DNA of 40,965 nucleotides. It comes from Thermodesulfovibrionia bacterium. Lineage in GTDB: Bacteria; Nitrospirota; Thermodesulfovibrionia; UBA6902. A program made the position numbers and the translations under genes. The notes beneath the pieces are model-generated. The model saw only the letters and a program-made list of their open reading frames with translations. It was not told the origin of the DNA and ran no database searches. Location: assembly GCA_945787795.1 (NCBI GenBank), contig CALZJD010000005.1, positions 1-40,965 on the forward strand, given 5' to 3'. Positions 5,159-37,195 of this stretch are shown here, piece after piece. The stretch's first letter is position 1, and every line of letters starts with the position of its first letter.

Positions 5159-7573
5159 TCAGTCTCGAGGAACGGGGCGTAGGTTCCTTACGAGCCTAAG
5201 GAGTACACCAAGACGGACCCATACCGTTTTCCGCACGTTCGCTATGAGTGACTCCCGTTCCTCGGCTAGCCGCTGCCACTTATCCCGCTCCTGTTCCAGC
5301 TCGGCTGCGCGTGTCTGCTGTTCCGCAACAACCCGCTGCCACTTATCCCGCTCCTGTTCCAGCTTGGCTGCGCGTGTCTGCTGTTCCGCAACAACCCGCT
5401 GCCGCTCCTCCAGCAGTACTTCGATGGCCTGAACTTGCTTTTGTATGGACTCTTCACGCCCTCTTAACAGCATTTCCGGCACTTGCGAAAACCAGGAGAA
5501 TTCTACGGCCTTCGCGGCAGACACCCGCCTCACTTCGAGTCCCACATCAGGGCGTGGCTCATCAGCATGACATGACTTTGCTTTTTTCAGAAGCAGGACC
5601 ATTGTCTCACCCAAGTGTTCCAACGAATAGTGATTGCATGCCCACGTCCGACCGGCTTTCCCCATCTCCTTACAGGATTGGGGATTTTTTAGTAACTCCG
5701 TCAAAGCCTCGGCGTACCTCTCCATTTCTGTGTATTCATCGCTGCAAGGTATCAGCACGCCACATTTCAATCCCTTAAGATTACATCGATTGCCGATGTC
5801 CAGAGAGACGATGGGCAGGCCACAAGCCATCGCCTGATGAACAAAAACATCTTTTCTCTGGTTTTGTGACGGTTGAAAGAAAATGTCTGCTGCTGACATC
5901 AGTTCCCTGAGACGCTCAGTAGAGACCACCCCGAGTATACGTATTTGATCAGACAACCGGTGCTTTTCTACGAAAGAATACAACCAATCCAAATCAGGGC
6001 CATCTCCAGCCACTAGCGCAACAAAGTGTGTGCCCGATTCGCGCAGCCGTAATATAGTTCTGGCAAATATGAAGGGCTGGTTCTCGGCGTACACGCGGCC
6101 TGCATACAAAATCAGTGGTGTGGTATCATCAAGCCCCAAGTCTGAACGCACTAAGCGGCGCCGGTGTTGGTCTGGACTCCATTTCTCAATGTTGATGAGG
6201 GTGTCACACACCCCAATGCGATGGGGGGCTACACCATGCTTAACCATCGATGTTTTGAGGCCTTCAGACGCTACGACGTTAAAATCGAGCAATTCCGAGT
6301 ATAGGACCCCATCGGGGGGCAAGGCTTCAGTCTTCCTCGGCTCTTCACTGTGGGAAAGCCCCACGTACGTAACATGTGGGAAATGGCTACGAAGGTACGG
6401 CAACAAGAGGTAGCCTAATTCACATTCTGCAACTATGACTGTCTCGACCTGCCTGGAATGCATGAGATAGCGCAGGAATCTCGGGTAGTCCACGACACGC
6501 AGGAAGTGAGGCAAGACAAATATGTCTGGAGTACAGTGAGAAAATTGTGAAAGGGATGAAAGGTCTTCATTGTACGTCGTCGCAACGGTCACTTCCCAAC
6601 CTTTGTCACGCAACTTCTTCACTAACTCCAGTTTGAACACATCCGCTCCTTTGGATGTCAACCTGCGCATAAGCATCAAAAGGCGGGGGTGTTGTTCTAA
6701 TTTGAGAAGGCGATTCTCACACGGTAGGCGATCCGGTATTTTATCATTAGGTACGCTCCGACCATGCTCAATTTCTGGAAAGCCATGTTGCCATAGGCGA
6801 GGATATCGTGCCCGAGCACGAGAATGAAAGTCTCTCAACCCCTCTTCATTCCAGTTCGGCCACCGATCACGGTGGTCCGGCCGACGTCTGTACCAGTTTA
6901 AGTGTTCAGGCACGTTGCCCCCCCAATAACCTTGACTCGCACAACGTAGCCAGAACTCCCAGTCCTCGAGCCCATTTCGCATCGATTCGTCGTAGCCACC
7001 TACCGCCTCATGTACTGCTTTACGGAACATACACGTCTGGTCAACTTGGTTTTCCTCCAAGAAAGACCTGCCAAAATGAAAACCCCTTTGCCATAAATAT
7101 TCCTCCGCTCCAAAGGCCACTGAATAACCTTTAACAAATCCGAATTCTGGATAAGACTCCAAGAACCAGCACCATTTCTCAAGGGCTGTTGGCTCTAACA
7201 AATCATCACTATCCAGCTGAACGACATAATGACTTCTAGCAGTGCGGAAGCCAGTATTGCGCCCCGCGCTAGGGCCCATGTTAGTAGTGTGGTCAATAAC
7301 GCGAATCCGAGGATCCAAGCTCCGGTACTTCCCCAGAATTGAAATTGACTCTCGACATGTCGTGCCATCATTTATTATCAGCCATTCCCATTGCTGAAAA
7401 GTTTGCTGAAACATTGAGCGGGCCGTCTCTTCAAAGATGGGGCCCGTGTTATAAAAGGGGGTAATCACAGTTACGTATGGCGAAGCGGTAACATCGGCCA
7501 ACGCATAACCAAAACACGGGCGATCAATAGAAATAGGAGTATTAGTGAAATCCGGATTGCCAGGATCAATCAT
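5159..7573 (-). CDS. GT2 + GT4 bifunctional glycosyltransferase with C-terminal coiled coil
   Basis: VTVITPFYN...INDGTT, LDSDD and EDWEFW (GT2); ILYAGRV, ADIFFQPS and AMACGLPIV (GT4); heptad-rich tail. Confidence 0.92.
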   Translation of the reverse strand: MIDPGNPDFTNTPISIDRPCFGYALADVTASPYVTVITPFYNTGPIFEETARSMFQQTFQQWEWLIINDGTTCRESISILGKYRSLDPRIRVIDHTTNMGPSAGRNTGFRTARSHYVVQLDSDDLLEPTALEKWCWFLESYPEFGFVKGYSVAFGAEEYLWQRGFHFGRSFLEENQVDQTCMFRKAVHEAVGGYDESMRNGLEDWEFWLRCASQGYWGGNVPEHLNWYRRRPDHRDRWPNWNEEGLRDFHSRARARYPRLWQHGFPEIEHGRSVPNDKIPDRLPCENRLLKLEQHPRLLMLMRRLTSKGADVFKLELVKKLRDKGWEVTVATTYNEDLSSLSQFSHCTPDIFVLPHFLRVVDYPRFLRYLMHSRQVETVIVAECELGYLLLPYLRSHFPHVTYVGLSHSEEPRKTEALPPDGVLYSELLDFNVVASEGLKTSMVKHGVAPHRIGVCDTLINIEKWSPDQHRRRLVRSDLGLDDTTPLILYAGRVYAENQPFIFARTILRLRESGTHFVALVAGDGPDLDWLYSFVEKHRLSDQIRILGVVSTERLRELMSAADIFFQPSQNQRKDVFVHQAMACGLPIVSLDIGNRCNLKGLKCGVLIPCSDEYTEMERYAEALTELLKNPQSCKEMGKAGRTWACNHYSLEHLGETMVLLLKKAKSCHADEPRPDVGLEVRRVSAAKAVEFSWFSQVPEMLLRGREESIQKQVQAIEVLLEERQRVVAEQQTRAAKLEQERDKWQRVVAEQQTRAAELEQERDKWQRLAEERESLIANVRKTVWVRLGVLLRLVRNLRPVPRD
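5270..5403. repeat. 63-bp (21-aa) tandem repeat, 2 copies plus a partial, encoding the coiled coil
   Basis: Units start at 5271 and 5334 and differ by 1 base; they encode QRVVAEQQTRAA(K/E)LEQERDKW. Confidence 0.95.
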
Positions 7574-36177: not shown

Positions 36178-36477
36178 ATGGCAATGCATAAAAGGGGTGA
36201 TACACAGATTAAGCGTGAGTTCTGGCTTCGCCAGGGACGTCAGTTTCTGGCTATAGCGGTAGCGCTCTTTTTTGTTATATTGATGGCCGTACTCTATAAA
36301 CGCAATGATCTGGTGGGAGAATTCTCAAAAAATGCTCTTGTGGCAGGGCAGCTTTCAGTAATAATTGCATTTATCGGTTTTACCGCATTTAACTGGAGAT
36401 GCCCCTCATGTAAAAAATATCTTGGCAGTGATATTAATAAGCGTGCATGCAGGCATTGCAATAGCAGATTAAGATAA
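36178..36477 (+). CDS. Small 2-TM protein with C-terminal zinc ribbon
   Basis: Two hydrophobic helices, then WRCPSC...ACRHC. Start uncertain (the ORF opens at 36109). Confidence 0.75.
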   Translation: MAMHKRGDTQIKREFWLRQGRQFLAIAVALFFVILMAVLYKRNDLVGEFSKNALVAGQLSVIIAFIGFTAFNWRCPSCKKYLGSDINKRACRHCNSRLR

Positions 36478-36485
36478 TAGATCTG

Positions 36486-36960
36486 CATGGGGCGCTGCCC
36501 CAAACCCCGGTTCATTCTTTTGTGCGGCCAAAAGAACGGAACCAAGAAAAGGCCGCCCCAGCACCGATTTCTTCACGGTTCTTTACACAAGCTCGGGGAA
36601 TTAATTGAAACTCCCCTCGGTCAGACACCAATTAATTCTATTCCCTCAACAAGCCAAGAACCTAAAATCGCTGAAAGGGGAAGTCAAATCCCCCCTGACC
36701 CCCCTTTTCTAAAGGGGGGACTTCGAGAACATATTCATTAATGTATCTTTAGATTTTTTTAATTCCCCTTTAGCGAGTTTAGGTGATGAAGGGAGCTGGA
36801 GGGATAAGAATTTGTTTGTGTCTGACCGAAGGGAGTTTAAACAAATTCCCCGGAAGCGGACTGAAGAGCCGTTTAAAACTCGGTATTGGGGCGCCTTCTT
36901 TTGGTTCCGTTTTCTTGGGCGTGCAAGAAAATGAACCGGGGTTTGGGGCAGCGCCCCATG
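36486..36960. mobile_element. Two inverted, diverged copies of a ~200-nt structured non-coding element (MITE/ncRNA-like)
   Basis: 31-bp perfect terminal inverted repeat CATGGGGCGCTGCCCCAAACCCCGGTTCATT; arms ~36486-36688 (+) and ~36757-36960 (-) align throughout, with compensatory changes. Confidence 0.7.
36686..36721. repeat. C-rich/G-rich REP-like hairpin nested between the arms
   Basis: AAATCCCCCCTGACCCCCCTTTTCTAAAGGGGGGAC. Confidence 0.6.
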
Positions 36961-36993
36961 GTAATAAATCAATAACTCATTTTGAAACCATGA

Positions 36994-37019
36994 GATTCTG
37001 AAATAAATTCAGAATGACA
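36994..37019. repeat. dRS3/REP-like half element, copy 3
   Basis: GATTCTGAAATAAATTCAGAATGACA, matching the 3' half of the 29732 element. Confidence 0.65.
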
Positions 37020-37195
37020 CTGAAGCCATATGCCGAATTGTCGGACAGTCTCCTTGCTGCGGGGGAGTTCATTTGACAAAAATTTAATGAATAGCGAATA
37101 TGTAATAGCGAATTCATGGCAGCAATGCAGCATGGTGATGCAGCTGTATGCCGGCCATATACATCTATGGTAATCTCTACAACAGGAGATATGTT

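Follow-up and report, generated by a model that had tools for sequence, protein, structure and literature searches.

A head-to-head pair of structured ~215-nt arms in a Thermodesulfovibrionia genome belongs to a multi-copy, cross-phylum family with a co-varying pseudoknot and a predicted triple helix

Miniature inverted-repeat transposable elements (MITEs) and repetitive extragenic palindromes (REPs), including Correia elements and the REPINs that go with RAYT transposases, are multi-copy, intergenic repeats of bacterial genomes. The ends of IS608 and the attC sites of integrons are simple imperfect hairpins, and the enzyme that acts on them is known and encoded nearby. Sequences resembling the expression and nuclear retention element (ENE) are present in plant and fungal transposon RNAs. 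According to PMC7583470, long major-groove triple helices are known from RNA stability elements of eukaryotes and viruses, and those of bacteria, which are found in riboswitches, are all very short. The same review describes the pyrimidine-parallel triplex as a motif of folded RNAs, typically in H-type pseudoknots, with two canonical U•A-U triples and one to four non-canonical ones in riboswitches, a G•U-A triple listed for the SAM-V riboswitch, and nine U•A-U triples with one C•G-C triple in MALAT1 (PMC7583470). Here we describe an inverted pair of structured arms at 36486-36960 of a window (the whole stretch of DNA analysed) of 40,965 nucleotides from a Thermodesulfovibrionia bacterium of the Nitrospirota (GenBank assembly GCA_945787795.1, contig CALZJD010000005.1, positions 1 to 40,965 of the forward strand), and we compare it with these systems.

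This feature is a head-to-head dimer of a repeated, structured arm of ~215 nt; in the reading that we prefer, and hold with about as much belief as doubt, the arms would be outward-read structured RNAs of a family resembling non-autonomous repeats, in which a triplex-pseudoknot and a hairpin at the 3' end would end and protect the transcript. An initial annotation of the window had reported an inverted pair with compensatory base changes at this place, and the pair is real. The repeat finder returned two inverted pairs, one of 73 nt and 85% complementarity (36486-36558 / 36888-36960) and one of 54 nt and 83% complementarity (36594-36647 / 36799-36852). Aligned with the reverse complement of the right arm, the left arm shows a mean column identity of 86% over 218 columns, the first 31 of which are identical, as had been claimed for the terminal bases. 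Every compensatory pair that the annotation listed can be read in the sequence: between the arms, TTCTTTTG/CAAAAGAA becomes TTTTCTTG/CAAGAAAA, GAATTAATTG/CAATTAATTC becomes GAATTTGTTT/AAACAAATTC, and CGATTT/AAATCG becomes CGAGTTT/AAACTCG, with CCCC/GGGG closing either arm. The two arms are different structural variants, each internally consistent. A covariance model (R1) of the outermost module of the arm, module T, was built from 31 copies, none of them from this genome, and it scores 102.1 bits at 36884-36973 on the plus strand and 99.0 bits at 36473-36562 on the minus strand. Because both arms reach about 100 bits against a model made from the copies of other genomes, the inverted pair of the window is far beyond chance. 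The proposed boundaries fared less well than the pair itself, as the conserved unit extends ~12 nt further out on each side. It is longer than 36486 and 36960 would imply because it includes a U/A-rich tail whose conservation spans phyla. This tail is intact in the right arm (36959-36973, plus strand, matching the cross-phylum consensus) and degenerate in the left one (36473-36487, minus strand).

Each arm is made up of a long hairpin that contains G.A motifs, an H-type pseudoknot, and a GC hairpin at the end that leads into the short U/A-rich tail. When the assembly from which the window comes (G000; 349 contigs, 3.0 Mb; C- and L-numbers below denote contigs and loci) was searched at the DNA level, one arm gave 14 matches, and blastn together with nhmmer resolved three modules: T (~75 nt), a long hairpin of type A, and a long hairpin of type B. 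The sequence of type B differs from that of type A, the type of the window, and the two share their architecture and apical loop motif. The usual arrangement, in this genome and its relatives, is T-A-centre-B(inverted)-T(inverted), most dimers being 454-494 bp long around a centre of 40-120 nt that is a variable mosaic of small hairpins. The window copy is a T-A-centre-A'-T variant, and further copies are truncated, interrupted or located at contig ends. On the left, the type A hairpin spans 36561..36684 on the minus strand (nhmmer A-module match, E 2e-33); it is closed by the CCCC/GGGG pairing, its apical motif on that strand reads GUGUCUGA, a mini-hairpin and GAGUUU, and its basal helix is Watson-Crick, where most other copies have a double tandem G.A motif. 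On the right, a diverged A-type hairpin spans 36764..36891 on the plus strand (E 1.4e-9), with a basal tandem G.A motif, GGUGAUGAAGG / CUGAAGAGCC, and the same apical motif as the left arm. Both hairpins are rows of the A-arm alignment (A2). Between them lies the variable centre (36685..36763), with a small GC hairpin repeat at 36699-36719. This small repeat, of the form C6, T-rich loop, G6, also occurs at C87:9088, C156:5235 and C147:4970 of the same assembly, is found in the centre of several dimers as well as alone, and resembles a fusion of the 5' starts of the A and B arms.

The helices of the family co-vary. For 25 A-type arms RNAalifold predicts 42 pairs, half of which (21) show compensatory changes; for 21 B-type arms it predicts 51, of which 15 do. 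When 129 distinct T modules were aligned to R1, standard pairs occupied 97.5% of cells, a value that is inflated because the alignment (A4) is fitted to the model. Double changes occur in 15 of the 18 T-module pairs (190 cells), and none of 500 shuffles reaches the observed value, a count that is not a probability because the sequences are related and not independent. Sliding the partner by one to three columns lowers the pairing to 49-74%. The terminal hairpin, with 6 bp of GC, is nearly invariant among these modules; in the window it lies at 36488-36502 (left, minus strand) and 36944-36958 (right, plus strand), separated from the preceding hairpin by a G-tract in both arms. Copies within this genome are only 84-96% alike and yet keep helices, pseudoknot and the triplex register, which argues that the copies, or many sub-family founders, are under selection for the fold and are not decaying relics. 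The initial annotation had supposed that each copy folds independently, that structure is under selection, and that the pair is not a simple recent inversion. All three hold at the level of the family, in which Bacteroidales possess stand-alone single arms.

Almost every intact copy shows complementarity between the T-hairpin loop and a stretch across the purine/pyrimidine run. Over 82 distinct pairs of loop and 5' segment, the longest Watson-Crick run has a mean of 4.60 nt, against 3.08 (standard deviation 0.11) after shuffling, and 0 of 2000 shuffles match it. More than ten different helix sequences realize this pairing, for instance GCGGCC, CGCC, CGCA, GCGCC, GTGCCC, GTGGCC, GCAGCC, TGTC and CCAC, and TCTTGAT in Bacteroidales; in a gapless alignment of 31 sequences, double changes are present in five of the six pairs of this stem (P1). 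The loop thus pairs with its flank as in the triple-helix H-type pseudoknots, a structural class rather than a homology family. In the left arm, P1 is formed by 36551-36556 with the hairpin loop at 36524-36529 (minus strand; a 6-bp complement), and the hairpin P2 by 36509-36513/36539-36543 and 36515-36522/36529-36536. In the right arm (plus strand), P1 is formed by 36892-36895 with the loop at 36918-36921, and P2 by 36903-36907/36933-36937 and 36910-36917/36924-36931. Four loci (L154, L167, L216, L242) have this loop in the opposite orientation to the rest of the family and have lost the pseudoknot complementarity, which is the expected outcome of recombination between stem strands or between two arms.

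Between the hairpin and the pseudoknot strand lies a run that mirrors the purine strand of the hairpin and co-varies with it. Viewed on the complementary strand it is a pyrimidine stretch parallel to the purine strand, with U opposite A-U, C opposite G-C and, in a variant with a U-A inversion, G opposite the inversion. Judged from this covariation, a major-groove triple helix of U•A-U and C•G-C triples is predicted, with 7-8 triples and up to 14 in some variants. When each sequence was parsed separately, 31 of 36 distinct stem/third-strand combinations matched at six or seven of seven positions (0/10000 permutations). At the two variable columns of the model-based alignment, the parallel mapping is 93.7% compatible with 84 double changes (0/500 shuffles), and an antiparallel control mapping is 59.9% compatible with no double change, a value that all 500 shuffles reach. 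The failure of this control excludes the alternative that the third strand forms an antiparallel Watson-Crick helix. When the seven columns are taken together, compatibility holds in 738 of 791 cells, where shuffles average 646.6 (standard deviation 8.1; 0/5000). A shuffle of the 18 distinct combinations on the model-fitted alignment was not significant (1991 of 5000 reach the observed value); rare length variants are misaligned there in the unpaired third strand, and the parse-based test handles these. Metagenomic variants extend the match to 14 positions with two G/C positions in register (L149, L159, L241) or to 11 positions (L161, L205). Both arms of the window are compatible at 7/7 positions, the left third strand (36544-36550, minus strand) matching UUUUCUU to AAAAGAA and the right one (36896-36902, plus strand) UUCUUUU to AAGAAAA. 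Parallel covariation of a third strand is thus seen as in the triple-helix pseudoknot class, the formation of the triplex itself being predicted. In one sub-family of T modules (C147:4690-4765 of this assembly; L085, L132, L168, L218, L227, L244, L248, L253), the third strand is interrupted by an insertion of ~65-100 nt, edged by a short motif in duplicate, that might represent an additional domain or a small element nested there.

The family extends well beyond this genome, which holds 18-19 T modules (19 with R1 at E ≤ 0.01), so that a comparison of each arm with the genome, proposed in the initial annotation, reveals a multi-copy family. With R1, T modules were found in 21 of 41 Thermodesulfovibrionia relatives at 0-37 copies each, and none in a complete genome of the same genus. 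A scan with an exact pattern, using one genome per species, found 44 loci, mostly in Thermodesulfovibrionia or other Nitrospirota metagenome-assembled genomes (MAGs), the others being in Bacteroidales, Paludibacter, Prevotella, Porphyromonadaceae and one Gastranaerophilales MAG. Three genomes of other phyla contain 10, 16 and 10 T modules, and a metagenome scan gave at least 123 loci; viral contigs gave no match to the T pattern, and plasmid and phage collections no blastn match. In Bacteroidales, single arms of unchanged architecture lie in intergenic DNA among ordinary or housekeeping genes, and therefore the arm, not the pair, is the independent unit. Gastranaerophilales, too, have related single arms. 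Multi-copy, patchy in close relatives, present across phyla and devoid of a gene of its own, the family behaves like a non-autonomous repeat. An ATG-initiated frame of 84 aa (36487-36741) was considered as a coding alternative and rejected: the lengths of variants differ by non-multiples of three, so the arms are non-coding, and some variants have GTG, TTG or CTG in place of ATG. In a Bacteroidetes MAG, two outward-pointing arms were considered as the ends of a 30-kb element; this was also rejected, the content being housekeeping genes (EF-P, ArgG, ArgR, UvrA, galactokinase).

The strand that folds is the one read outward from the centre. The left arm has a folding energy of -87.9 kcal/mol (z -3.58) on this strand and -61.6 kcal/mol (z -2.05) on the other, and the RNAalifold energies are -29.8 versus -17.7 for A arms and -42.0 versus -24.0 for B arms. 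Over the union of the pairs found on either strand, G-U exceeds A-C when read outward, by 56:23 in A arms and 62:13 in B arms. Among 30 Bacteroidales-type arms the apical motif is found on the outward strand in 20 and on the other strand in none; among 121 Nitrospirota-type arms the figures are 62 and 5. In DNA triplexes, the classical solution to a T-A inversion is a G opposite it, and all-RNA purine-motif triplexes are disfavoured. The G-U excess, folding energy and triplex chemistry together favour the centre-outward strand. Inward transcription from a -10-like box outside the ATGGGG was considered and dropped: the flank motif is also conserved in Bacteroidales, whose promoter consensus differs from the sigma-70 type, and the strand evidence points outward. 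This asymmetry also bears on whether the feature could be an ordinary double-stranded MITE or a recent inverted duplication, with palindromes that have no single-strand function. Such an element would suit the absence of an open reading frame (ORF), the ~475 bp length, the multiple copies and the location among other repeats, but it would not give a strand-asymmetric G-U excess and folding energy, and no double-stranded constraint or known mutational process produces pseudoknot and parallel third-strand covariation. Since, in addition, the arms of the window are different, internally consistent variants and arms also occur singly, we regard this explanation, which the covariation controls already contradict, as very improbable. 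The modular unit, the pseudoknot with its co-varying, predicted triple helix and the outward-read folded strand all go beyond the initial annotation.

Several observations weigh against the outward-read RNA that we prefer. When only pairs shared by both strands are counted, the G-U excess is modest (20:8 in A arms, 7:5 in B arms). G-T wobbles, tandem G.A pairs and pyrimidine-motif triplexes form in DNA too, and the structural evidence is therefore compatible with folded single-stranded DNA. We found no conserved promoter in the variable centre between the arms, and a sigma-70 consensus scan gave nothing inside the window element, nor was a terminator found there. The 6-bp GC hairpin of the outward strand is followed by a tail with the consensus ~UUUU-AAUAAAU, common to the Nitrospirota and Bacteroidales types, but few tails have at least five T in the first eight nucleotides (49 of 146 of the Nitrospirota type, 2 of 30 of the Bacteroidales type), and there is no U-run in either tail of the window's element, so that the terminator reading is weak. 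Gene context gives no functional hint because the orientation of neighbours is inconsistent: at 123 Nitrospirota-type T modules, the nearest gene runs toward the T end in 56 cases and away from it in 32, with none within 400 nt in 35, and among 31 Bacteroidales arms the upstream gene is on the same strand in 7 and divergent in 7, with none within 500 nt in 17. The limits of the model-fitted alignment and of related sequences, given above with the pairing values, count on the same side. Contigs from three metatranscriptome runs of the same study, searched at 80% likeness, contained a few short T-like or repeat-like pieces that carry no strand or end information, and we draw no conclusion from them.

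These data on context also concern the proposal that the arms are cis-acting RNA modules for the flanking genes, comparable to REPs, in which a read-through mRNA ends in the distal arm and is stabilised by it, a dimer serving both directions. The arms are intergenic and, by the counts above, the nearest gene of Nitrospirota-type modules runs more often toward the T end (56/123) than away from it (32/123); the ORF upstream of the window element ends 9 nt before it, two Gastranaerophilales cassettes have their downstream arm directly after a stop codon on the strand of the gene, and no promoter belonging to the element was found. However, a unit of ~215 nt with internal-loop sequences conserved over three phyla far exceeds what termination or stabilisation needs, only 7 of 31 Bacteroidales arms have an upstream gene on the same strand, a transcript reading through a dimer would include the proximal arm too, in antisense and partly complementary to the distal one, and the U-tracts are weak. 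We therefore judge it unlikely. A role as riboswitch or cis-acting leader is likewise at odds with the context, in which a constant position upstream of a coherent gene set is replaced by mixed orientation on both sides; neighbours vary from locus to locus and include CorA, an acyltransferase and housekeeping genes.

The most serious competitor of the outward-read RNA is a non-autonomous mobile element whose ends, the arms, fold as single-stranded DNA. These structured terminal repeats would be recognised on one DNA strand by a trans-acting enzyme during replication or transfer, in the manner of IS200/IS605 ends, REP/RAYT pairs or integron attC sites, with the short-centre dimers as internal-deletion (MITE-like) derivatives of cargo-carrying elements. 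The patchy, multi-copy distribution (0-37 copies per genome, none in the complete genome of the same genus) and the occurrence across phyla would suit such an element, as would the ability of all the structural motifs to form in DNA, the lack of a promoter in the centre or in the consensus scan, and the inverted hairpin loops described above, which point to DNA-level events. Every dimer found has its arms in inverted orientation, T modules outermost and tails outward, so that terminal inverted repeats of the MITE kind are present, and the interior ranges from ~40 nt to 2-2.8 kb. The long interiors are those of the Gastranaerophilales MAG (G043), in which inverted arms with outward tails flank 2-2.8 kb of cargo (L267:679-3562 and L268:776-2802): a DndB-like (DGQHR) gene and an unknown gene in one and a radical SAM gene in the other, with an extra tandem T on one side. 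At the other extreme, L072 (G016:C60:5937-6044) is an ~80-nt mini-element whose two inverted terminal hairpins share one purine/pyrimidine hairpin.

Against these points stand the results on mobility. No target-site duplication was seen in the full copies inspected, on C5, C73, C147 and C186 and at L018, L019 and L036, where the AT-rich flanks belong to the inverted arms themselves. The initial annotation had proposed a search for empty sites and for a linked nuclease or transposase. No empty site was found at three loci compared with three genomes of the same genus, synteny breaking beside the element, and clustering of 441 flanking ORFs revealed no recurrent linked protein, the largest cluster being seven loci of one lineage. 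All 19 T matches of this genome lie in short elements or at contig ends, and no autonomous partner with a transposase was found. The distribution of Y1 (HUH) transposase genes is unrelated to that of the element: 35 of 41 genomes have PF01797 regardless of it, one relative (G002) has the gene and no copy, and the gene was not found in G003, G008 and G024, all of which carry copies. The three Y1 genes near copies are flanked by other palindromes, unlike the co-occurrence of RAYTs with REPINs. Copies that are old (84-96% alike) and still paired fit selection on every copy better than decaying relics, and the single arms of Bacteroidales sit among housekeeping genes. With the evidence divided in this way, we consider DNA ends possible, although we would not expect this explanation to be the right one. 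As for the Y1 (RAYT-like) genes themselves, they encode ~320 aa, have up to 17 matches per genome and carry their own palindromic repeats (C91:7370-8650 of this assembly; L040; L043).

A structured fold, outward reading at a repeat end and many copies, as in HEARO-type RNAs, would also suit an orphan guide-RNA scaffold for an RNA-guided nuclease of the TnpB/IscB type that a transposon encodes. The ISDra2 TnpB guide RNA is described with a 'Triplex-Loop' and a pseudoknot next to the guide (PMC10711439). The TnpB family PF07282, however, was found in only one of the 41 relatives and in none of the 21 element-carrying genomes, this genome included, which largely refutes this possibility. None of the copies has a nuclease gene as neighbour, both phyla conserve the 12 nt that follow the terminal hairpin (144 and 25 distinct flanks) where a variable guide would be expected, and the topology of the pseudoknot differs, the loop pairing here with a segment 5' of the hairpin. 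No guide-RNA family of Rfam (HEARO or related) matches, and we take a guide RNA to be highly improbable. More generally, Rfam 15 gave no match at gathering score in the whole window or in 14 related loci from three phyla. Relaxed thresholds gave seven matches with E 0.66-9.5, the best at 21 bits against a gathering score of 50, and the weak C/D-box-like ones at 36779-36826, far below threshold, are due to UGAUGA/CUGA motifs. In the initial annotation the feature was thought to be either an undescribed non-coding RNA or a non-autonomous element, and, with no matching Rfam family, both are still live readings.

Returning to the outward-read RNA, we propose the following scheme. Each arm would function single-stranded, in the direction from centre to outside and most likely as RNA, with transcription starting on the side of the centre. 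From 5' to 3' it would form the long hairpin A or B with its basal and apical G.A motifs, which would carry the function, probably protein binding; then a stretch of 4-6 nt that would pair with the loop of the following hairpin as an H-type pseudoknot; then 7-8 pyrimidines that would lie parallel to the purine strand of this hairpin in a major-groove triple helix; and finally the 6-bp GC hairpin and the short U/A-rich tail, which would end the transcript. The triplex-pseudoknot, just upstream of the terminal hairpin, may block 3'-to-5' decay, a proposal made because its order of U-rich, U-rich and A-rich segments is that of the triple-helix RNA stability elements. In a more ambitious version, which we advance tentatively and with more doubt than confidence, the arms are the genes of a widespread, undescribed class of bacterial structured RNAs (Nitrospirota, Bacteroidota, Melainabacteria), and their 3' module would be the first long bacterial major-groove RNA triplex, with 7-14 consecutive U•A-U / C•G-C triples clamped by a pseudoknot, a counterpart of MALAT1 and the ENEs carried on a self-propagating, protein-free repeat. 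No description of the element was found in the open-access literature searched.

Other small repeats lie in or beside copies of the element. The initial annotation had placed two further repeat types next to the window pair, as a suggestion of an insertion hotspot, and both are multi-copy: the type at 36686 is found at 3 other places in the genome and the type at 36994 at 15. The latter is a separate repeat outside the element (36982..37073; 15 other places by blastn), built on a 7-bp palindrome with an ATTCTGA..TCAGAAT core and also present in two genomes of the same genus (G001, G002); it occupies the place where many other element copies have a different palindrome. A palindrome with a GTTTACA..TGTAAAC core and a stem of up to 17 bp is found 25-50 nt outside T, with a conserved spacer, in many same-genus copies (C91:6725-6763 and 7305-7335, and C186:2225-2263 and 2765-2790, of this assembly; L016, L033, L049); the sub-family unit may reach further out, or two repeat families may travel together. 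A GC-rich palindrome of ~20 nt (CCTGCC..GGCAGG type) occurs at two symmetric places of one A hairpin (L020:191-438) and also at L120 and L169, as a further tiny repeat nesting in the loops of the element. An IS481-like insertion, with a DDE transposase ORF and its own, different inverted ends, lies inside the T module at C73:19886-21071 of this assembly (L003) and at L175 and L245. Its position hardly differs among these three copies, in which it separates the GGGG run from the pseudoknot strand, it is present in both orientations, and this recurrence suggests target specificity for the site.

If the predicted triplex forms in RNA, long major-groove triple helices would be extended to bacteria, and the natural covariation of the family, in the position of G, the length of the triplex and the G opposite the U-A inversion, provides a ready-made mutational series. 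A large, structured element that is multi-copy and cross-phylum without a linked protein also turns its spread and the selection on each copy into testable questions. In practical terms, the 215-nt units break assemblies of Thermodesulfovibrionia MAGs, as many copies lie at contig ends, and they deserve annotation as element units instead of spurious ORF calls.

The comparison with described systems differs between the behaviour of the element and its fold. MITE, REP and REPIN repeats likewise lack an ORF, are found alone or in inverted pairs, have a patchy distribution in related genomes and may include terminator-like hairpins. In contrast to them, the arms described here are ~215 nt long with a conserved multi-domain fold, the covariation is strand-specific and involves a pseudoknot and a predicted triplex, and neither target duplication nor a cognate transposase was found in the copies inspected. 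As in the ends of IS608 and in attC sites, the single-strand fold matters and structure is conserved over sequence, whereas the fold here is much larger and no enzyme was found. The TnpB guide RNA (omega RNA or reRNA, of the IS200/IS605 family) resembles the arm in reading outward at the end of an element and in its pseudoknot and triplex-loop (PMC10711439), but in the arm a conserved tail replaces the variable guide and the topology of the pseudoknot is different.

Among folded RNAs, MALAT1 and the PAN ENE share with the arm the order of U-rich, U-rich and A-rich segments, a long U•A-U triplex (predicted in the arm) of comparable length with an occasional C•G-C triple, and a position near the RNA 3' end, and ENE-type elements are further alike in their association with repeated or mobile DNA, as known from transposon ENEs. 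The present element, by contrast, comes from bacteria; its A-rich strand lies inside the molecule, ~35 nt before the predicted 3' end, and is not a terminal A-tract or poly(A), and its predicted triplex is clamped by the pseudoknot stem. The SAM-II, SAM-V and preQ1-II/III riboswitches and the telomerase RNA pseudoknot have the same pyrimidine loop 1 parallel to the purine strand of stem 2 with U•A-U triples (PMC7583470). Compared with the riboswitches, the element predicts 7-8 consecutive canonical triples, up to 14, and it is multi-copy, with no constant downstream gene and no Rfam riboswitch match. Apart from the terminal inverted repeats that it has in common with MITEs, the element thus lacks the tested membership features of every named family. 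In its behaviour it is closest to the bacterial MITE/REP-type repeats, and in its fold to the triple-helix H-type pseudoknots and the elements of the ENE/MALAT1 type.

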